Shown: piece by piece, positions 5,147 through 39,523 of the stretch
How the letters are laid out: every line of letters begins with the position of its first letter
Numbering within the stretch: the stretch's first letter is position 1
Source of the DNA: Phycisphaerae bacterium
GTDB lineage: Bacteria; Planctomycetota; Phycisphaerae; UBA1845
Length of the DNA: 64,000 bases
Direction of reading: 5' to 3'
NCBI GenBank assembly: GCA_028289375.1
Contig: JANQQK010000086.1
Span: 41,679 to 105,678 of the forward strand
Made by a program: the position numbers and the translations under genes
Notes under the pieces: generated by a model
Seen by the model: the letters and a program-made list of their open reading frames with translations, nothing else
Told to the model about the DNA's origin: nothing
Database searches by the model: none

Positions 5147-6046
5147 TCACACTTTGACGAATTGCATCACCCGGTCATGAACTTCACCAGGCCCTTTGAA
5201 CGTGCCGACATGCTCGAACGCGCCCTCGGATGTGAATATCTCCGCCACCGCAGCCGACTGCCCCGCTCCGATCTCCACGATCACGACCCCGGCGTCCGCC
5301 AGCAACCTCAGCGAATCCGTCGCAATCCTGCGATAGAAACTCAGCCCATCCCTCGCCGCGAGCGCTCCACGAGGCTCATAGTCCCGAATCCCCGCCGGCA
5401 AGTCGGCCCAATCGGCATCAGTCACGTATGGCGGATTTGATACCAAGACATGGAACCCGCCATCCGGCACACCAGCGGCGTCGAGAAGCAGGCCATCATG
5501 CTCGGTGATCTCAACCCGGTCCGAGATTTCATGCCGTTCAACGTTGCCCCGCGCCATCGCCGCCGCATCGGCAGACACATCCAAACCAGCACCGCGCACG
5601 TGCGGGCACTGCTTCGCCAAGGCAATCAAAATGCAACCACTGCCCGTTCCGAAATCAAGCACGTGGATCGGCCTGTCCGAAACTTCCGCGCACACCACCA
5701 AAGCCCGATCCACCACCGTTTCGGTATCAGGTCTCGGGATAAGCACGCCCGGACCAACGGTGAATGGCAGCGAATAGAACTCCTTTTCCCCGACCAGATA
5801 CGCAATCGGCTCATGCTTGGCCGCCCGCCGCACGTGATCCCGAAAGACCGCCACCGCTTCAGCAGCCGGCATCTGCTCGAACTGCGTGTACAGGCCGATC
5901 CGCGGGCACCCCATCGCGTGGGCCAGCAGTACCTCCGCCGACAACCGCGGCTCATCCACCTCATGATGGCGAAAATGCTCGGCCGTCCACCCCAGCAAGC
6001 GCCCGACGGTCCATTCCGCTGACTTGGATTCCGTTCCTTCTGACAT
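5147..6046 (-). CDS. prmC: Release factor glutamine methyltransferase
   Basis: EPIAYLVG, VLIPRPDTE, DFGTGSGCI, SNPPY. Confidence 0.95.
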   Translation of the reverse strand: MSEGTESKSAEWTVGRLLGWTAEHFRHHEVDEPRLSAEVLLAHAMGCPRIGLYTQFEQMPAAEAVAVFRDHVRRAAKHEPIAYLVGEKEFYSLPFTVGPGVLIPRPDTETVVDRALVVCAEVSDRPIHVLDFGTGSGCILIALAKQCPHVRGAGLDVSADAAAMARGNVERHEISDRVEITEHDGLLLDAAGVPDGGFHVLVSNPPYVTDADWADLPAGIRDYEPRGALAARDGLSFYRRIATDSLRLLADAGVVIVEIGAGQSAAVAEIFTSEGAFEHVGTFKGPGEVHDRVMQFVKV

Positions 6047-6410: not shown

Positions 6411-7199
6411 CTACGCCATCGCCCGCCCCGCCCATGCCGCCAGCATGTCTGATACAAAGGCGGCGTCTTCGGGTTTGGAAAGCAGATGATCCGCACTGCC
6501 AAGCGAAACGAAGCTCTTGGGATGCTTGGCCCATCCGAATATCTGGGCTGCATGGTCGATGCCAACGATCGTGTCGACCGGCGAGTGGAATATCATCAAC
6601 GCCCGTCGCAGCGAACCGATCACGTTCCGTGCATCCTGCTCGCGCAAGTCGTCGAGCAACGCCTTGCCCAGCATGAAAGGCCGACCACCGATCGACACCT
6701 CCGCCTGTCCTGTCTCCTCGATCGAAGACGCCGCAGGCCCGATCAGGCGCATCACATGTTCCGGTTCGGCTGGCGCTCCGATCGTGGCCACCGCTTTGCA
6801 CGCTGCGATCTTCGACGCGGAAAACAACACCGCAGCCCCACCTAGCGAGTGTCCGACGAGCAACGCCGGTGCCGACCGATTCTGCCGCAGCCAATCGGCG
6901 GCGGCCAGGAGGTCGCCAACGTTCGATGAAAACGTAGTTTGCGCAAACTCACCTTCACTTTGTCCAAGTCCCGTGAAATCGAATCGCAGCACGCCGATCC
7001 CGCGCTCGGACACTCCCCGCGCGATCCGCGTCGCGGCCAGAATGTCCTTGGAGCAAGTGAAACAATGTGCAAACAGCGCGTACGCCCCCGCACTTCCACC
7101 GTTTGGTTCGTGCAGGCGTGCAGACAAGGTGTGCCCCAACGACCCGACGAACTCAATCTTCTCAGCTTCCACACCAATTCCTTCCTTGAATGCCGCCAT
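6411..7199 (-). CDS. Alpha/beta hydrolase (type often fused to OsmC)
   Basis: AHCFTCSK, RFDFTGLGQSEG, nucleophile GHSLGG, HSPVD, ADHLL. Confidence 0.9.
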   Translation of the reverse strand: MAAFKEGIGVEAEKIEFVGSLGHTLSARLHEPNGGSAGAYALFAHCFTCSKDILAATRIARGVSERGIGVLRFDFTGLGQSEGEFAQTTFSSNVGDLLAAADWLRQNRSAPALLVGHSLGGAAVLFSASKIAACKAVATIGAPAEPEHVMRLIGPAASSIEETGQAEVSIGGRPFMLGKALLDDLREQDARNVIGSLRRALMIFHSPVDTIVGIDHAAQIFGWAKHPKSFVSLGSADHLLSKPEDAAFVSDMLAAWAGRAMA

Positions 7200-32939: not shown

Positions 32940-35381
32940 TCACGGATTGTCCGACCGAGGGTCGGCGTCGTGTTTTGCAATCGCATCGTGGATGGCTTGG
33001 TCTCGGGCGTTGATCGCCAAGGCCAGCTTGCGGGCGAAATCCTGAGCGTCGATCTCCCAGGGCGGTGATTCCCTCGGGGTCTTTTCGAGCATGGCTAACA
33101 AGCTGCGGTACCGGATCGCGTCACGCAGAGCCGCATAATGAGGTGCCTCGTACACGACGAACGGCTTGTCGTCGGTATTGAGCGCCGCCCCTTCGACGTA
33201 TTTGGCGAGACCAGCGGGGCCTGTGATCAACAAGCCCTGTAGTTTCGCGTCGGAATCAAGACCAATGTTGTCCAGAGCTTCGCGCAACGCCGACATCGTC
33301 ACGCGTCGGGCGTGGTACCCATTGCCGTAGGTCGGCCACTCGTCGCGGACGCCGACCAAACCCACCACCGGGTTGTTCAGTTCAACATCGTGCATGATGG
33401 CGCGGCTGTCTGGAAACACTTCGAGGTACGTGCGAATGATCGCGCGCGTCGTCGGCTCGTCCAGCTGGTACATGGGCAACCACTGGACAAAGAGGCCGCC
33501 GGGCGAGAGTCGATCGTGGATCGCACGAAAGTGTTCCAGGGTGTAGAGCATTCCTCCTCCATCGCGGGCGGGGTGAAACAAGTCGGCAGTAATCACGTCG
33601 TAAGATTGATCGGTGGCGCGCACGTAGCGCCGTGCGTCGGCAGCGCGGACATTTACATTTGGAGCATCCGCCAGTGATCGGCCTTGGACTTCGAAAAACG
33701 GTAGCGCCGCCACAACTTCGGGGACCAATTCGACGGCGTCTGCCTGAAGGCCTGAGTGGTGGGTGGCGGCGAGGGCGGTGATGCCCGTGCCGACCCCCAA
33801 ATAGAGCGCCCGGCGGGGTTCTGGGTGAAGCAATAGCGGAATATGGCCCAAGCGCTGTTCCGTGCGAACCGTCCGCGGACTCGTGCCGCCCATCCGATAG
33901 CGGTTGTTCACGCGGAGAGAGTGGCCGTATTCGTCCTCGGTGACAGCGACAGATGCCATAACACCCTCGCGGTAATGAATGACCCGTTCCCGCTTCGAGA
34001 TGCGGGTAAGACGGAGGTCCGACGGAAGCAGGAGGAACGCCACAACGGGAATCAAGAACAGCCAGCTGATCTTTCGTGGATGGGCGATCAACGTCAGGTA
34101 CCCAAACGAGACCGTAACGAGTGTCCAGCAGGTGCCGAGGATCGGAACAAGAACCACGCCGAACAGGAGTGGTGCAAGGAATCCCCCAGCAGTATTGACC
34201 GCCACGGCAGCACCGACGCCTCCGTGGCGCCCCTTTGCCGCTTGGGCAAGGTGGCTGAACATCGCCCCCATGAGCAGCGTCGGCAGGCCAAACACTGCCG
34301 CTGCGACCGTCATCTCGCTGATTGCTACCCCGGCCAATCCGTCGCCCAGTGTCAGCCTGCACGCATGATATATTTCGCGGCTCCAGGCAAGGCCGATACC
34401 GCCGACCATGCCCAGTGTCGCCAATCCGAGCAGCAGGTAACTCAGCAAAGTATCGAACGCGATCCGTCTGCCCCATCGTTGGTAAGCCGCCGCCCCTGCC
34501 GCAGTCCCCAGCAGGAACACCGCAAGCGCGGCAGCGTAGCTATACACCGTGTTTTCAATGACCTGGGCGAGCACCCGCAGCCCGACGATCTCATAGCCAA
34601 TGCCAAGCAGACCGGTCACGCCGAGCATGAGCAGCAGGTGCGGGCGCGTCCTTGGCGACACTTCAGACGATGTTTCGACGTCGGAAGAATGGGCTGGATC
34701 GGTCGGCGATTCAGTTGAGACACTTTGTCGAAGTAGTGGCAGCATCATTGCCGCGCACAGCAGGTCGATCCCCGCGAGCACCATTACCGTGGTTCGGTAA
34801 CCGAGCACGGGTGCCAACACGAACGCCCCGATCAAAGTGCCGATGACCGCACCGAGCGTATTGACCGCGTACAACCCGCCGAGGCATCTTCCGTCGCGCG
34901 CGAATGGCGCTGCGAACCGTTCCATCGCCGGCAACGTGGCTCCCATCGCCGCCGTGGCGGGCAGCAGCACCACAAGAGGAAATCCAAGCGAGACAAGCCA
35001 CTGCCAGAGTGGACCTGGCTGTTCCCCCATCAGACGCAATGCCAACCCATTGGCAGGCGTCACAAGCCACACACAAGCCAGCCCCCAGAGGCCTATGATC
35101 AGCTCCAGCCCGACGTACCAATGTCCCGGTCGCGCGCTGTCGGCGATTGGCCGATCCAGGGCCCACGCCCCCAATGCCAACCCCCCGAAGAACGCTCCGA
35201 CGACGGCGAGTGCCGCCGGCAATTCGTGGCCCAGCCCCACGGCAAACATTCGCACGAATGCTGTCTGGTAACCGAGTCCCGCCACGCCTGACAGCAGGAA
35301 GATCGCATAGAGGCACGCAATCTGTCGTCGACGATGCAACCGATCCGGCATTGGTGCGAACGTACCCCTGATTGCTTGCAA
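32940..35381 (-). CDS. Fused multi-TM (MFS-like) / spermidine synthase-like protein
   Basis: SG.AGLGY, MGATLPA, LYAVNTLGA TM repeats; C-terminal LYLGVGTGIT, VELVPEV, DARRY, YDVITADLFHP, QWLP. Confidence 0.9.
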   Translation of the reverse strand: MQAIRGTFAPMPDRLHRRRQIACLYAIFLLSGVAGLGYQTAFVRMFAVGLGHELPAALAVVGAFFGGLALGAWALDRPIADSARPGHWYVGLELIIGLWGLACVWLVTPANGLALRLMGEQPGPLWQWLVSLGFPLVVLLPATAAMGATLPAMERFAAPFARDGRCLGGLYAVNTLGAVIGTLIGAFVLAPVLGYRTTVMVLAGIDLLCAAMMLPLLRQSVSTESPTDPAHSSDVETSSEVSPRTRPHLLLMLGVTGLLGIGYEIVGLRVLAQVIENTVYSYAAALAVFLLGTAAGAAAYQRWGRRIAFDTLLSYLLLGLATLGMVGGIGLAWSREIYHACRLTLGDGLAGVAISEMTVAAAVFGLPTLLMGAMFSHLAQAAKGRHGGVGAAVAVNTAGGFLAPLLFGVVLVPILGTCWTLVTVSFGYLTLIAHPRKISWLFLIPVVAFLLLPSDLRLTRISKRERVIHYREGVMASVAVTEDEYGHSLRVNNRYRMGGTSPRTVRTEQRLGHIPLLLHPEPRRALYLGVGTGITALAATHHSGLQADAVELVPEVVAALPFFEVQGRSLADAPNVNVRAADARRYVRATDQSYDVITADLFHPARDGGGMLYTLEHFRAIHDRLSPGGLFVQWLPMYQLDEPTTRAIIRTYLEVFPDSRAIMHDVELNNPVVGLVGVRDEWPTYGNGYHARRVTMSALREALDNIGLDSDAKLQGLLITGPAGLAKYVEGAALNTDDKPFVVYEAPHYAALRDAIRYRSLLAMLEKTPRESPPWEIDAQDFARKLALAINARDQAIHDAIAKHDADPRSDNP

Positions 35382-35429: not shown

Positions 35430-36092
35430 TCAAAGGGCGCATGGCGCAAGCGCGCTACCACGACGACTGAGCAGGATCGCCCCGCCGAGCATTCCGAAGG
35501 CCATGGCCAGCATCCCCCATTCTGATACGGTTGGGACGATGGCTTCGCCCGCCTCCTGATTGGTGAAACGCATCTCAAATGGGGCGGATTCTGTGTATCC
35601 GGTCGACCCCGAATCGACGAATTTGAAGGTGGCCAACCACTCGGTGGCCGATGGGTTGAAATCCGGATCATTCGAATCGGCGTGCCAGGTCAGGTGTTCG
35701 TGCAGATTGTCACTGCCAAGCGTTATCTGCTCGCCGGACTCATCGATTAGCGTCGCAAGCCCAGGTCCCCATGCCTTGAAGGCCGGGTCGATCGAGATCA
35801 CTTCGATCGAGATAATGGCGCCGGGCTCAAGTTTCAGAAAATCATTCTCCGGGTCGTCGATAACTTCCTCGGCATCGAAACCCGGGTTACCGTTCGTGAA
35901 TCCATCAAGGATTCCGTCAACGGGGCACAGCAGAACCGAATCACCGAGCGAAAATTCGGCATCGCCGATGACGAGTTGGCCAGCGGCTGTCCGTCCGATC
36001 AGCACATCGCTGTGCTCGCCGCATTGGGCGAGGACGGAGGGTACGAAACTGGCAGTTAAGATGATCGCAAAGCACGCATTTCTCAATCGCAT
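35430..36092 (-). CDS. Secreted His-motif protein with IPTL-CTERM-like sorting signal (paralog A)
   Basis: Signal peptide; EHSD, PVD, NPGF, IDP, LHEHLTW; tail IVPTVSEWGM-TM-RR. Confidence 0.8.
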   Translation of the reverse strand: MRLRNACFAIILTASFVPSVLAQCGEHSDVLIGRTAAGQLVIGDAEFSLGDSVLLCPVDGILDGFTNGNPGFDAEEVIDDPENDFLKLEPGAIISIEVISIDPAFKAWGPGLATLIDESGEQITLGSDNLHEHLTWHADSNDPDFNPSATEWLATFKFVDSGSTGYTESAPFEMRFTNQEAGEAIVPTVSEWGMLAMAFGMLGGAILLSRRGSALAPCAL

Positions 36093-36195
36093 CGTGTCTT
36101 CTCCCAGGGTTGAAATGGATTGCCAGGAACCGAACGAAGCGGAGATGGGCGATCACCCATCTCCGCTCGTCGCAGTCTTCTTTCCCGTCCGTTGG

Positions 36196-37080
36196 CTATG
36201 CCTTGACGCGTCTGTTGCCAGCGATCATGAGACCAGCCACCAGCAGAACGCACAGGAGCATCATGCCGCTGGTTGAAACCGTCGGGACGGGCTCAACCTC
36301 TGCAGCGGCACAGGTGCTTGGTGTACAGGGCACGTTTTCGCCCATGAAGACACCGCCCTCGTCGGCGCAGTGGTCTTCGTGCTCAAATTCGCACTCGCCA
36401 TCCGGCAGACAGCAGGCGCCGGGGACCTCGCATGCATCAGCCGAGCAGGTCGATCCTTCGCCGAGGAATTCGCCACCCTCGTCTTCACACGCTTCCTCGA
36501 ACTCACCATCCTCGCACTCCCCGTCCGGGAGGCAGCAGGCGCCAGGCTCGGCACACACGACGGTCGCGGTCAAATCTCCCGTCGGATCGCACGTGCCACT
36601 TGGGTCGAAGAGGCGGAACGTGAAACTATAGGTTCCGTCCGGATCCCACGCTGCATCCATCGAGTCGATATGCCACGTCGGGTGGACATCGAACGGGACG
36701 GTACCGATCACGAAGGTCTCGCCGGGCGTGTCGATCGTGTCGCCAAAACCGGGTGTGTAAATCACAAGCCCGGGATCGATGGAAACGAGCTCGAACGCGA
36801 TCTCGGTTCCGTTCGGCAGCATAAACAAGCCCTCATCCGGCTCATCCTCGTCAAGCGTCATGAACCCGGGATCGTCCAAAGCGCAACCGAACAGCAACGG
36901 TCCATCGACCGGCGGCACTTCGAACGCGTCATCAAAGTCAAACTCCACTGCGATTTGGTTCGTCGCCGTCTTTCCCACCTCCAGATCCGCATGTCCGTGC
37001 TCGTCGTCGTGGTCATGCTGACCAAACGCAGCCGGATGGCAGAGTGCAATGAGCACCCCAGTCACAAAAACAGTACGCAT
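36196..37080 (-). CDS. Secreted His-rich protein with Cys repeats and IPTL-CTERM-like signal (paralog B)
   Basis: QHDHDDEHGHAD, PVD, DPGF, IDP, FDVHPTW; two GACCLPDGEC...EGG.F.G repeats; tail VPTVSTSGM-TM-RR. Confidence 0.8.
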   Translation of the reverse strand: MRTVFVTGVLIALCHPAAFGQHDHDDEHGHADLEVGKTATNQIAVEFDFDDAFEVPPVDGPLLFGCALDDPGFMTLDEDEPDEGLFMLPNGTEIAFELVSIDPGLVIYTPGFGDTIDTPGETFVIGTVPFDVHPTWHIDSMDAAWDPDGTYSFTFRLFDPSGTCDPTGDLTATVVCAEPGACCLPDGECEDGEFEEACEDEGGEFLGEGSTCSADACEVPGACCLPDGECEFEHEDHCADEGGVFMGENVPCTPSTCAAAEVEPVPTVSTSGMMLLCVLLVAGLMIAGNRRVKA

Positions 37081-37103
37081 GTCGCTTCCTCCTAAGTACG
37101 CGA

Positions 37104-37913
37104 TTATTCCGAACCTCCGAATTGCACCTGCAAATCGGCGAAGTCCAAGAGATCAACATCAAGGTCGTCGTCGAAGTCGAATGCGTTGTGGCATTCGACT
37201 TCGCAATCGGTAATGGCGGGATCGTCCGGCATTGGACGCACGTCCGGCCCCGCATAGCAATGAGCAAACGCTTGAAAATCCGTCAGATCGACGGTGCCAT
37301 CGGTATCGAAGTCGCCGTTGGCGGGTATGTCGGCAGGTGGAAAGACCCCACCACGAACGGGAACATTGGCAAAGAGCAACGTAAACGCCCCCGAGTCGTC
37401 CAGGTTGCCGGTGAGATCGACGAAGTTGAAGGTGGTTTCCCAGACACATTTGGTCTCATCAAACAGTGGATCCTCCTCGTCGACGAACCACGTAATGTGT
37501 TCGTGCAGATTGGAGCCACCAAGGACGGTCCTGTCGCCGGGTTCCGTTAGGAGCTGGAAACTGTTGTCGATCACAACGAATGCGGGGTCGACCTCGACAA
37601 TCTCCAACGCAACTTGCACGACCGGCGGGAGAGGCGTGACGCCGTCCACTGTCGTGACGACATGGTCGAAACCGGGGTCGTTGTCAGACCAGCCCTGGAT
37701 AAACGTATCAACTGGACCCAAAGGGTGATAAACGGACTCGGGCTGCAAACCGACTGGATGCCACGCGACGCGACCCTCCTTCTGACCGATCCACATGTCG
37801 GCGTCGTGCTGTGCTGAAGCGATCTCCGGGCGACTGAGCATCATCACCAACACAGCCATCGAGAAACCGATGAACACTCGGCAGCGCGTGTCAACGTGCG
37901 ATTTCAGGGTCAT
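37104..37913 (-). CDS. Secreted His-motif protein with dockerin/EF-hand-like tail (paralog C)
   Basis: QHDAD, PVD, DPGF, VDP, LHEHITW; tail GDFDTDGTVDLTDF...DFDDDLDVDLLDF; SD GGAGG before ATG 37913. Confidence 0.78.
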   Translation of the reverse strand: MTLKSHVDTRCRVFIGFSMAVLVMMLSRPEIASAQHDADMWIGQKEGRVAWHPVGLQPESVYHPLGPVDTFIQGWSDNDPGFDHVVTTVDGVTPLPPVVQVALEIVEVDPAFVVIDNSFQLLTEPGDRTVLGGSNLHEHITWFVDEEDPLFDETKCVWETTFNFVDLTGNLDDSGAFTLLFANVPVRGGVFPPADIPANGDFDTDGTVDLTDFQAFAHCYAGPDVRPMPDDPAITDCEVECHNAFDFDDDLDVDLLDFADLQVQFGGSE

Positions 37914-38649
37914 AGCGATTATGCCTCCAGACGATGTTCTGCAGCGAACTGTTTGCCTCATCGATCAGGTATGTTGCTTCGAACACGTGCTTCTCCACGT
38001 GTCCGTCGAAGTAGGAGTAATTCGATGATTCGAGGTGGCGTTCGAGTTCAACTTCCTCACCTGCGAGCCTGCGGGGGTTGGACCACCACGTTTCCGGGTG
38101 TACGTGATCCGACACGGCGAAGGGGCCGACCTCGGCGATTTCGACCATGTGGATGGTGGTGCTGGATCGGCGAATCTTGCTGAGCATGTTGTAGGGGCCG
38201 CGGTTGCCGATCGCGGCGACGGTGTAGTAGTTGGTTCCGTAGCTTGTGCGCCGAAGTCGCGGCTGGTCACCGCCAGTGTTTCCCGGCCCGCTCGCGCCTG
38301 TCGTCGTGGTTGTGCTCGGATTCACGGGCACCTTCCAGTGCGTGCTGCGATCCTGCGGGCAACGTGCGATTCGCTCGTCACGTCCGTAGAAATCCTTCAG
38401 TGTGTTGATCCAGGCAGCGTGCTCGTTGCCAACGCCGCCGTGCGCCAGTCCGGCCCCGATGATGCGGTCTTCGTTCTCGTTGGCGTAAAGATGGACGGCT
38501 TGCATGAGGCTTCGCATGTTGCTTGCGCAGGCTGTGGTTTTCGCGGCCTTGCGGGCGCGCGAGAATTGTGGAAGAAGAACGCTGACCAGCAATCCAATGA
38601 TTGAGACCACGACCAGTAATTCGATGAGAGTGAATCCTTGCTTGCGCAA
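37891..38649 (-). CDS. Prepilin-type N-terminal cleavage/methylation protein with H-X9-DG motif (DUF1559-like)
   Basis: G|FTLIELLVVVSII, ARKAAK...CASNMR, RCPQD, SDHVH, H-LESSNYSYF-DGHV; TTG 38649 (SD AAGGGGAG) preferred over ATG 38673. Confidence 0.9.
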   Translation of the reverse strand: MRKQGFTLIELLVVVSIIGLLVSVLLPQFSRARKAAKTTACASNMRSLMQAVHLYANENEDRIIGAGLAHGGVGNEHAAWINTLKDFYGRDERIARCPQDRSTHWKVPVNPSTTTTTGASGPGNTGGDQPRLRRTSYGTNYYTVAAIGNRGPYNMLSKIRRSSTTIHMVEIAEVGPFAVSDHVHPETWWSNPRRLAGEEVELERHLESSNYSYFDGHVEKHVFEATYLIDEANSSLQNIVWRHNRYDPEIAR

Positions 38650-38765
38650 AGCAAAACTCCCCTTATTCGGCATTCGCTGAAATCAAATTGGGACGGAGTT
38701 CCGACGCAAGCACAGGGCGTACGTGGATCCCCTCGTGGACGAACGAAAAGGGCTTACGAGTTGGG

Positions 38766-39137
38766 CTAGGCAGTTGGGGGAGCACGCGGAAGTCGGCGGG
38801 CGCTGACTTCGGTTGCCGTGGGGATTTGTGCATCGATCGCATGGGATCGACGTACGGCGGCGCCCTCAATTTCGAGGGTTGGTGTCACCGCAATGGCGGC
38901 ACCTGACCAAGTGCTCAACAAATGGCATGTCTGGCAATCATGATCATGTCCGTCGCGCTCTTCGGGAACGGACTCGGATTGGTGATCATGGCAACTGTGC
39001 TCATGAGCGTGGATATGTGCATGATCAGGCGCACCATGAACCGTCGACACGTGGACAAACTTGGCCACGCCCGGCGCGAGCAACGCAATGGCTGCCAAGC
39101 AGCACAAGCTTGTTGTTTTTTGCAGCGCTCGGTTCAT
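38766..39137 (-). CDS. DUF2946-like His-rich leader protein with CxxC and C-terminal RAPP
   Basis: N-terminal hydrophobic segment, HAHIHAHEHSCHDH, HDHDCQTCH, terminal RLPRAPPTA*. Confidence 0.8.
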   Translation of the reverse strand: MNRALQKTTSLCCLAAIALLAPGVAKFVHVSTVHGAPDHAHIHAHEHSCHDHQSESVPEERDGHDHDCQTCHLLSTWSGAAIAVTPTLEIEGAAVRRSHAIDAQIPTATEVSARRLPRAPPTA

Positions 39138-39147
39138 ACGTGGGAGG

Positions 39148-39176
39148 ATTTTAACGATTGGCGAAAGTGAATGCAA
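39148..39176 (-). promoter_or_regulatory. Sigma70-type promoter of the RAPP-leader operon
   Basis: Minus strand TTGCAT-N17-TAAAAT, ending 10 nt before ATG 39137 (near-leaderless transcript). Confidence 0.65.
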
Positions 39177-39320
39177 ATCGTTCATGATTGCGTTTGCGGG
39201 GAAAACGGGGTCGATCTGCGTTCCCCGGCGGCTTGAAAGCGACTGCTATTGAATGATTTGCTCGATTTCGATGTGTGGATGATGTCCGCCTCGTGGGAGA
39301 ACCCGTGATTCCAGTGTCAT

Positions 39321-39388: not shown

Positions 39389-39463
39389 TCGGGGCGACTG
39401 GATTCGAACCAGCGACCTCTGCGTCCCGAACGCAGCGCTCTGGCCAGGCTGAGCTACGCCCCG
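39389..39463 (-). tRNA. tRNA-Pro(CGG)
   Basis: Minus-strand cloverleaf: acceptor CGGGGCG/CGCCCCG, anticodon arm CTGCG-TTCGGGA-CGCAG, T-loop TTCGAAT; CCA not encoded. Confidence 0.96.
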
Positions 39464-39523
39464 TTGTGAGTTTTATGCTAGACCTACTGTTGGGGAGTGT
39501 CAACGTGGGATGGGCGCGTTGCG

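Follow-up and report, generated by a model that had tools for sequence, protein, structure and literature searches.

We analysed 64,000 nucleotides (nt) of DNA, called the window below, from a Phycisphaerae bacterium of the Planctomycetota (GenBank assembly GCA_028289375.1, contig JANQQK010000086.1, positions 41,679 to 105,678 of the forward strand). The subject is a small gene at 38766..39137, delimited by its open reading frame (ORF) and by the alignment of its relatives, which encodes a 123-aa protein of the DUF2946 family and precedes a pseudopilin-like gene and three ORFs resembling the exoprotein ZepA/All3515. Unless stated otherwise, coordinates are those of the window and features lie on its minus strand. 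Judged by its sequence, the small ORF is a CruR-type (DUF2946) leader and a divergent planctomycete member of that group. We know of no route other than leaders encoding DUF2946 arrest peptides through which a nascent chain signals a transition metal to gene expression. To our knowledge, two of these leaders have been studied, CruR and CutF, both of which are proteobacterial and copper-responsive. The present locus bears the sequence marks of both published output modes, a tract richer in C than in G and a hairpin at the ribosome-binding site (RBS) of the next gene. This makes it well suited to asking what determines the output mode within the family and whether metals other than copper are sensed.

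The leader gene and its promoter region

The leader gene runs from an ATG at 39137-39135 to a TAG at 38768-38766, and its 3' end, CGT GCT CCC CCA ACT GCC TAG, is read as R-A-P-P-T-A-stop. A TAAAAT hexamer at 39153-39148, with 10 nt between it and the ATG, belongs to a promoter-like site, TTTGCA-18-TAAAAT (39148..39177), that matches the consensus at 9/12 positions. The promoter scan covered 1.6 kb and returned two promoter-like sites, compared with 0.5 +/- 0.7 in shuffled sequences. Because the -10 box ends 10 nt upstream of the ATG, the leader mRNA would be nearly leaderless. A preliminary description of this DNA had reported the -10 box, the 10-nt gap and the RAPPTA ending, all correctly in letters and coordinates, and had placed the leader at the head of a pseudopilin operon, which is borne out by the gene order and by the promoter-like site directly upstream. 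An alternative in-frame ATG at 39185 lies upstream of the promoter-like site and would add 16 residues that occur in none of the 16 relatives described below. We therefore took ATG 39137 as the start; in the alignment, all 16 relatives begin at the equivalent position.

An inverted repeat, AACGATTTGC-N10-GCCAATCGTT (39153..39182, no strand assigned), spans the -35 to -10 boxes with 10-nt arms that are 90% complementary. It occurs once in the window, as a pattern picked post hoc, and is a possible operator at which a metal regulator might bind.

A word-indexed search with the leader protein against a collection of 5.8 billion protein clusters gave no match at E <= 0.01, the protein itself included, and the small leader gene may be unannotated in public records. 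For annotation, this is a case in which a small ORF without a match in large protein collections is a real gene.

The leader protein is a member of DUF2946

An exhaustive phmmer search of 1.8 billion representative sequences gave three matches, P0001 (E 3.4e-6), P0002 and P0003. P0003, a protein of 763 aa that is full of repeated Cys/His motifs and was matched in eight short stretches, was dropped as a composition match. The phmmer matches and two profile rounds yielded 16 relatives, which were aligned with the window protein (17 sequences in all). Against the Pfam profile of DUF2946 (PF11162), the window protein scored 21.4-21.9 bits (E 3e-4 to 5e-4) over positions 3-117 of 117. All 10 of the 10 aligned subfamily members matched PF11162 at E <= 0.01, the best at 1.3e-7, and 6/16 relatives carry a precomputed PF11162 label. 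The homology of the window protein to DUF2946 is thus supported transitively, through the PF11162 matches of its relatives and the phmmer link to P0001.

The invariant positions of the alignment include C49, C68, C71, R118, P120 and P121. C68 and C71 frame a CxxC motif (C68-Q-T-C71, 38925..38936), the presumed metal-binding site, which is present in 17/17 sequences. A stretch rich in His and Asp (residues 29-67) lies before it, and the window protein contains 13 His. R118, P120 and P121 belong to the RAPP motif (38775..38786, codons CGT GCT CCC CCA). An R-[AG]-P-P motif is found in all 17 sequences, with Ala in the window protein only and Gly in 16/16 relatives, and it lies two residues from the C-terminus in the window protein and three to six residues from it in the relatives. 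The distance between CxxC and this motif is 45 residues in 15/17 sequences and 46 in the other two, the window protein being one of them. These 45 residues vary in sequence, but their number does not, and R-x-P-P at a fixed distance from CxxC in 17/17 sequences exceeds chance expectation. Based on toeprinting of CruR (PMC12992588), arrest is expected when CCC occupies the P site and CCA the A site.

The N-terminal part contains a hydrophobic helix (residues 3-33, 39039..39131) that is predicted to be an export signal or membrane anchor. Its hydropathy peaks at 2.39 over residues 11-25, after a basic N-terminus, and an AlphaFold model built on the alignment shows helices at residues 3-20 and 22-33, with a predicted local distance difference test score (pLDDT) of ~90 for residues 1-20. 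A second, shorter and moderately hydrophobic helix starts at the CxxC motif (residues 66-80, 38898-38942); the remainder is disordered in the model, including residues 82-114, with a mean pLDDT of 61. Residues 66-80 are also the best-conserved stretch of the family, which in the relatives reads C-x-x-C-L-M-L-A-T-G-G-Q-W-G, and this helix might enter the membrane or translocon during arrest.

All RAPP codons are non-preferred when compared with ten window ORFs: CGT accounts for 17% of Arg, GCT for 10% of Ala (n = 471), and CCC and CCA for 28% and 20% of Pro codons. The arrest motif of the related locus L001, introduced below, likewise uses CGT. In CruR, RAPP is written in frequent codons, and rare codons sit in a C/T-rich unstructured stretch further upstream, as described in PMC9426467.

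About 250 nt upstream of the leader, the same strand carries a tRNA-Pro(CGG) gene (39389-39463) with a promoter-like TTGACA-17-TAGCAT at 39503..39475. This tRNA does not read the window arrest codons CCC and CCA; the Pro codons of the L001 motif are CCG CCG. Its position beside a Pro-Pro arrest leader may be a coincidence.

A related locus and the pseudopilin start

A genome scan for related loci confirmed one of 30 candidate stretches, the locus L001 in a Phycisphaera metagenome-assembled genome. The scan pattern demanded Leu after CxxC and thus excluded RAPP-type relatives like the window leader, which has His at this position. The genomic context was read for L001 only, the other 15 relatives being protein sequences. 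L001 contains, in order, a Fur-family gene, the leader, a 91-nt spacer, a pseudopilin gene, a gene for a GC-dockerin protein and one for an All3515-like PEP-CTERM protein. The order of leader, pseudopilin and All3515-like genes is shared by the two loci. The pseudopilin-like protein of the window (37891..38649), recognized by domain matches to the prepilin N-terminal methylation motif and DUF1559, is 32% identical to its L001 orthologue over the full length (E 3e-30).

Two starts were considered for the window pseudopilin. TTG 38649 is preceded by GGGGAG at 7-nt spacing and opens the prepilin leader M-R-K-Q-G|F-T-L-I-E. The L001 orthologue starts in a similar way, with M-P-R-R-C-A|F-T-L-I-E after GGGGAAAGG, a G-rich Shine-Dalgarno sequence (SD), at 6-nt spacing. 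No purine tract was found upstream of the alternative, ATG 38673. On these grounds TTG 38649 appears to be the better start. Because TTG 38649 has an SD and is matched by the L001 orthologue, and because ATG 38673 lacks a purine tract, GGGGAGU stands as the pseudopilin SD, as the preliminary description had assigned it, and ATG 38673, the start it named as an alternative, is disfavoured. The leader and the pseudopilin gene are then separated by 116 nt (92 nt if the start is ATG 38673). Strong SDs, AGGAGG and GGGAGAAG, are found at neighbouring genes of the operon.

A stable hairpin encloses the pseudopilin ribosome-binding site

The preliminary description had proposed that the Ala-Pro-Pro codons, GCUCCCC in the mRNA (38783-38777), serve as an anti-SD for GGGGAGU (38662-38656), and had pointed out a second anti-SD, GGAACUCC (38702-38695), and an alternative partner, GGGGAUC (38732-38726). 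All these letters are present at these positions, and GCUCCCC can form six Watson-Crick pairs and one G-U pair with GGGGAGU. However, such a 7-mer is expected by chance: the 168 nt upstream of the SD hold one SD-complementary 7-mer, compared with a mean of 1.03 in 2000 dinucleotide shuffles, 70% of which hold at least one. When 38830-38630 was folded, both the minimum free energy (MFE) and the centroid structure paired GGGGAUCCACGU (38721..38732) with the R-A-P codons, whose predicted partner it is when no ribosome is present, and GGAACUCC with the SD. It is thus the second anti-SD that is predicted to sequester the SD.

The predicted RBS hairpin is long and two-part (38636..38716). Its 5' arm includes GGAACUCC, and its 3' arm holds the SD, the start TTG (38649-38647) and codons 2-5; the UU of the start codon lies in a 4-nt internal loop and codons 2-5 are paired. 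The hairpin is more stable than chance would suggest: it folds at -29.6 kcal/mol, a z-score of -2.77, and an equally low energy was seen in 1% of 500 shuffles and in 0.8% of 388 GC-matched 81-nt segments of the same strand, although in 9% of all 1598 such segments. In L001, the RBS likewise lies in a stable hairpin (6461-6509, -26.5 kcal/mol), which ranks in the top 1.05% of 1234 segments and in the top 3.3% of 120 GC-matched ones. There, a 4-nt internal loop contains the AU of the AUG. Pairing of codons 2-4 is common to both loci.

A ribosome footprint, of 31 nt in the window, was masked at the arrest site. The SD stayed paired in both loci, with a P(unpaired) of 0.06-0.21 in the window (0.03 in the free RNA) and 0.06-0.08 in L001 (0.29 in the free RNA), so that the idea that stalling masks an anti-SD and frees the SD finds no support at either of them. 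Counted from the P-site codon, the base of the hairpin is 62 nt downstream in the window and 82 nt downstream in L001, and at these distances a stalled ribosome could not unwind it. The only alternative pairing found, that of GGGGAUCC with GGAACUCC, comprises 4 + 3 base pairs and was never adopted in the constrained folds. A four-segment switch of the erm type, in which the arrest codons would pair with GGGGAUCC, GGGGAUCC in turn with GGAACUCC and GGAACUCC with the SD, was considered and rejected on energetics.

A C-rich, G-poor tract covers the arrest site

The 78-nt C-versus-G analysis as used for cruR revealed a C>G bubble resembling a Rho utilization (rut) site. It comprises segment centres 38731..38848, at which C exceeds G by at least 9 percentage points, and by at least 10 except at 38835. 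The excess is largest at 38796-38783, over the arrest codons, where it reaches +27 with 46% C and 19% G; the 95th and 99th percentiles of the strand are 20.5 and 28.2. The peak in L001 is +15, with strand percentiles of 11.5 and 19.2. In both loci the bubble lies over the arrest site and runs into the first part of the spacer. A C>G bubble is likewise described at the CruR locus, where it reaches from the leader's 3' part into a long spacer (PMC9426467). No intrinsic terminator was found in the minus-strand spacer, and an Rfam scan of the DNA matched only tRNA. From its sequence context, we infer that Rho may be involved at this locus.

Downstream genes and their probable function

The pseudopilin gene is followed by three tandem ZepA/All3515-like ORFs at 37104-37961 (true start probably internal), 36196-37080 and 35430-36092. 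Each matches NF040463, the All3515 'Zur-repressed PEP-CTERM' model, weakly (E 3.6e-6, 7.9e-6 and 1.8e-4). The N-termini of the encoded proteins are His-rich, and two of the three in the window end in IPTL-CTERM-like tails. ZepA (All3515) is described as a Zur-repressed zinc exoprotein, with homologues near FUR genes in the Planctomycetes-Verrucomicrobia-Chlamydiae (PVC) group (PMC10957091). The cargo of the operon is probably devoted to zinc scavenging; because the matches behind the ZepA-like assignments score far under the curated cut-off, zinc should be read as a lead rather than a result.

The sorting tails of the ZepA-like paralogues differ between the loci, being dockerin-like plus IPTL-CTERM in the window (35430-37961) and GC-type dockerin plus PEP-CTERM in L001 (7075-8827). 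This suggests that one metal-binding module is displayed through several anchoring routes. An ORF of 813 aa (32940-35381), with a spermine/spermidine synthase-like domain at residues 509-657, lies ~50 nt after the ZepA-like genes on the same strand and may belong to their transcription unit.

In L001, the probable ATG (5630) of the Fur-family gene has a near-perfect 26-bp palindrome (5602-5627) a short distance upstream. Its resemblance to the consensus makes it a candidate Fur-family box. This candidate box suggests autoregulated transcription of the whole L001 unit. When a counterpart of the palindrome was sought in the window with up to 3 mismatches, none was found.

Proposed mechanism

The profile match, the alignment and the structural model agree with the earlier assignment of the ORF to the CruR/CutF class of leaders, with RAPP, a CxxC/His site and an apparent export signal, and we regard it as likely that it is a regulatory arrest leader of the DUF2946 family. 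A CruR-like output fits best because of the CxxC and RAPP motifs, their CruR-like spacing and the acquisition-type cargo. The explanation that we favour, with a probability of about 60%, is that metal-modulated arrest controls Rho termination in the manner of CruR and that the RBS hairpin adds a second layer. A more tentative proposal, at somewhat below even odds, is that the Rho route is the main output.

From the features described above we infer the arrest, the metal that modulates it, the direction of the metal effect and the role of the hairpin as follows. The leader product would be exported or anchored in the membrane through its N-terminal helix, and the ribosome would arrest at R-A-P|P, Pro-120 occupying the P site and Pro-121 the A site. 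Given the 46-residue ruler, the CxxC motif and the His/Asp cluster, 46-50 residues back, would at this moment lie just outside the exit tunnel, where a bound metal could alter the duration of the arrest. The arrested ribosome would sit in the middle of the C-rich, G-poor tract, so that Rho could not load and RNA polymerase would reach the pseudopilin and ZepA-like genes. If metal released the arrest, the ribosome would terminate at the UAG and leave the C-rich tract and the spacer bare. The closed RBS hairpin would then keep ribosomes off the RNA and Rho would terminate transcription, or the hairpin would add translational control. Considering that the cargo resembles a zinc-acquisition system, the logic is likely 'metal replete = off', and the metal is likely zinc rather than copper.

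Several observations weigh against this explanation. The score of the window protein, 21.4-21.9 bits, is below the PF11162 gathering score of 23.7. The four ZepA-like ORFs, three in the window and one in L001, score 19.8-27 bits against an NF040463 cut-off of 75 and match model positions ~138-225 of 227 only. The C>G peak stays below the 99th percentile in both loci, and on a 40-nt scale 17% of segments are as skewed as the spacer of the window. Folds of the whole region are no more stable than those of shuffled sequences (z = -0.8, -0.97 and +0.6), and with a single related locus, the two spacers, which cannot be aligned, give no covariation for the hairpin or the C-rich tract. In L001 the leader is the second gene of the operon, not the first, and overlaps the stop of the Fur-family gene. 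In the window, a Pfam scan of the 29 larger ORFs among 54 (at least 130 aa) listed at 21.9-51.7 kb found no Fur-family gene; a Fur gene of ~130-150 aa could sit in one of the unscanned ORFs.

Alternative explanations

The strongest alternative is a translational switch of the CutF/SecM type, in which arrest at RAPP leads to opening of the RBS hairpin and the pseudopilin is translated only during arrest. It would account for the stable hairpins that enclose the SD and start codon in both loci. However, the hairpin base, 62 or 82 nt past the P-site codon, is far beyond the footprint, the SD keeps its pairing in the masked folds of both loci, and the freed GGGGAUCC offers 4 + 3 pairs with GGAACUCC against a hairpin of -29.6 kcal/mol. 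The motifs are also CruR-like (CxxC, RAPP) and not CutF-like (CxxxC, PPP), and the CutF authors expect unfolding of the stem-loop only with short spacers. We consider such a switch unlikely.

It is improbable that the leader is instead a secretion monitor, in which, as in SecM, ApdA or ApdP, pulling by the Sec translocon would release the arrest and which would report export capacity rather than metal. Its RAPP core, N-terminal hydrophobic helix and disordered chain would suit this function, as would the apparent export of all the downstream products, and RAPP/RGPP leaders are enriched among secretory small proteins (PMC12992588). However, the downstream genes do not encode Sec or YidC components, and the invariant CxxC, the ruler of 45-46 residues and the His-rich cluster point to ligand sensing. 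Moreover, the protein belongs to DUF2946, and a Fur-family gene abuts the L001 leader.

Equally, there is little reason to expect a non-regulatory gene, i.e., one for a small exported metal-binding protein that acts in trans like the accessory proteins of the CopL/CzcI type. R-[AG]-P-P is reported as the most avoided motif in bacterial proteomes (PMC12992588), yet here it is invariant near the C-terminus, and the 45 residues before it are fixed in length while varying in sequence, with residues 82-114 predicted to be disordered. What such a gene would explain is the richness in His and Cys and a weak CzcI-family match of the window protein (E 0.0033), and DUF2946 proteins without a Pro motif do exist, CzcI being an example (PMC9973294).

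Masking of an anti-SD formed by the Ala-Pro-Pro codons themselves, so that a stalled ribosome would free the SD, is very improbable: the 7-nt complementarity exists, and GCU is a rare Ala codon (10% of 471), which means that the pairing U is not a default choice, but the 7-mer is at chance level and unused in the MFE and centroid folds, another partner of the SD lies closer and is much longer, masking the codons leaves the SD paired, 16/16 relatives have Gly in place of Ala, and a search of L001 found no arrest-codon 7-mer able to pair with the SD. The preliminary description therefore holds in its class assignment, an arrest leader of the CruR/CutF kind, and fails in this mechanism.

Known and new elements

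The family, both motifs, the spacing rule and the two output mechanisms have been published (PMC9426467; PMC9973294; bioRxiv 10.1101/2025.02.05.636593). The phylum has been recorded before, since Table S1 of the CruR paper includes DUF2946 proteins from two Planctomycetia (PMC9426467). Specificities other than copper have been proposed for His-only clusters, and in Caulobacter, DUF2946 genes are found ahead of a zinc/cadmium efflux operon (PMC4176598). No leader paired with pseudopilin and ZepA-like genes was found in the titles and abstract openings of the DUF2946 papers listed or in passages of those cited here; File S1 of the CutF paper may contain such cases. The supplement text of PMC9973294 outside File S1 has no Planctomycetes entries, and the main text of the ZepA paper (PMC10957091) contains none of the terms 'DUF2946', 'uORF' and 'pilin'. 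What is new is a divergent, Phycisphaerae-like planctomycete branch of a known family with pseudopilin and ZepA-like cargo.

A bolder proposal, which we regard as doubtful, is that the Phycisphaerae-type DUF2946 subfamily (RGPP/RAPP, HxC, His/Asp-rich) provides the first zinc-responsive arrest leader. Its nascent chain would sense zinc and, acting after the start of transcription and on top of Zur, would use the rut-like tract and the RBS hairpin to switch off ZepA-like zinc-scavenging exoproteins, for whose export or display a dedicated pseudopilin would serve.

Comparison with known systems

The downstream ORFs resemble ZepA (All3515) of Anabaena (PMC10957091) in their weak matches, His-rich N-termini and PEP-/IPTL-CTERM tails, and a FUR-family gene is adjacent in L001 as in the described PVC zepA loci. 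They differ from ZepA in that the matches are far below the family cut-off and are confined to the C-terminal part of the model.

Like ApdA, ApdP and ApcA (PMC7897499; PMC10951233; PMC12992588), the leader is a small, apparently exported protein with an R-[AG]-P-P core near its C-terminus, encoded upstream of the putatively regulated gene. Those proteins are described as monitors of Sec or YidC encoded upstream of sec/yidC genes, whereas the window leader precedes a pseudopilin gene; as described, they also lack a CxxC/His metal site at a fixed distance from the motif.

Like CutF of Rhodobacter capsulatus (Ozturk et al. 2023, PMC9973294; bioRxiv 10.1101/2025.02.05.636593), the leader is of the DUF2946-like superfamily and combines an apparent Sec-type signal with a Cys metal motif and, at the C-terminus, a Pro arrest motif, and in both cases the SD of the next gene is shielded by a stem-loop. 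CutF, however, has CxxxC and PPP, where the window leader has CxxC and R-A-P-P-T, and is reported to control a detoxifying oxidase that is switched on by copper (PMC9973294). The window hairpin is also too far from the arrest site for direct unfolding.

The closest likeness is to CruR (Bp2923) of Bordetella pertussis, which is described as a poorly structured protein with an export signal, CxxC and, after 45 residues, RAPP three residues from its end; regulation is lost when either motif or the spacing is mutated (Roy et al. 2022, PMC9426467). Among arrest cores, RAPP and RGPP are reported as the strongest, and in a purified translation system CruR arrests with the Pro codons in the P and A sites (PMC12992588). 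For arrest, Rho dependence and metal response, the likeness is one of sequence. The window leader similarly has a putative export signal, a semi-conserved upstream Cys, CxxC, a spacer of 45-46 residues in its family and RAPP two residues before the stop (three in CruR), together with predicted disorder, a C>G bubble running into a long spacer and metal-uptake-type cargo downstream. The intergenic spacer is 116 nt (92 nt with ATG 38673) compared with 162 nt in CruR. Unlike CruR, which is proteobacterial and precedes a TonB-dependent transporter and a PepSY protein, the present leader is planctomycete, precedes a pseudopilin and ZepA-like exoproteins, has a much richer His/Asp segment and a stable RBS hairpin, and has relatives with RGPP.

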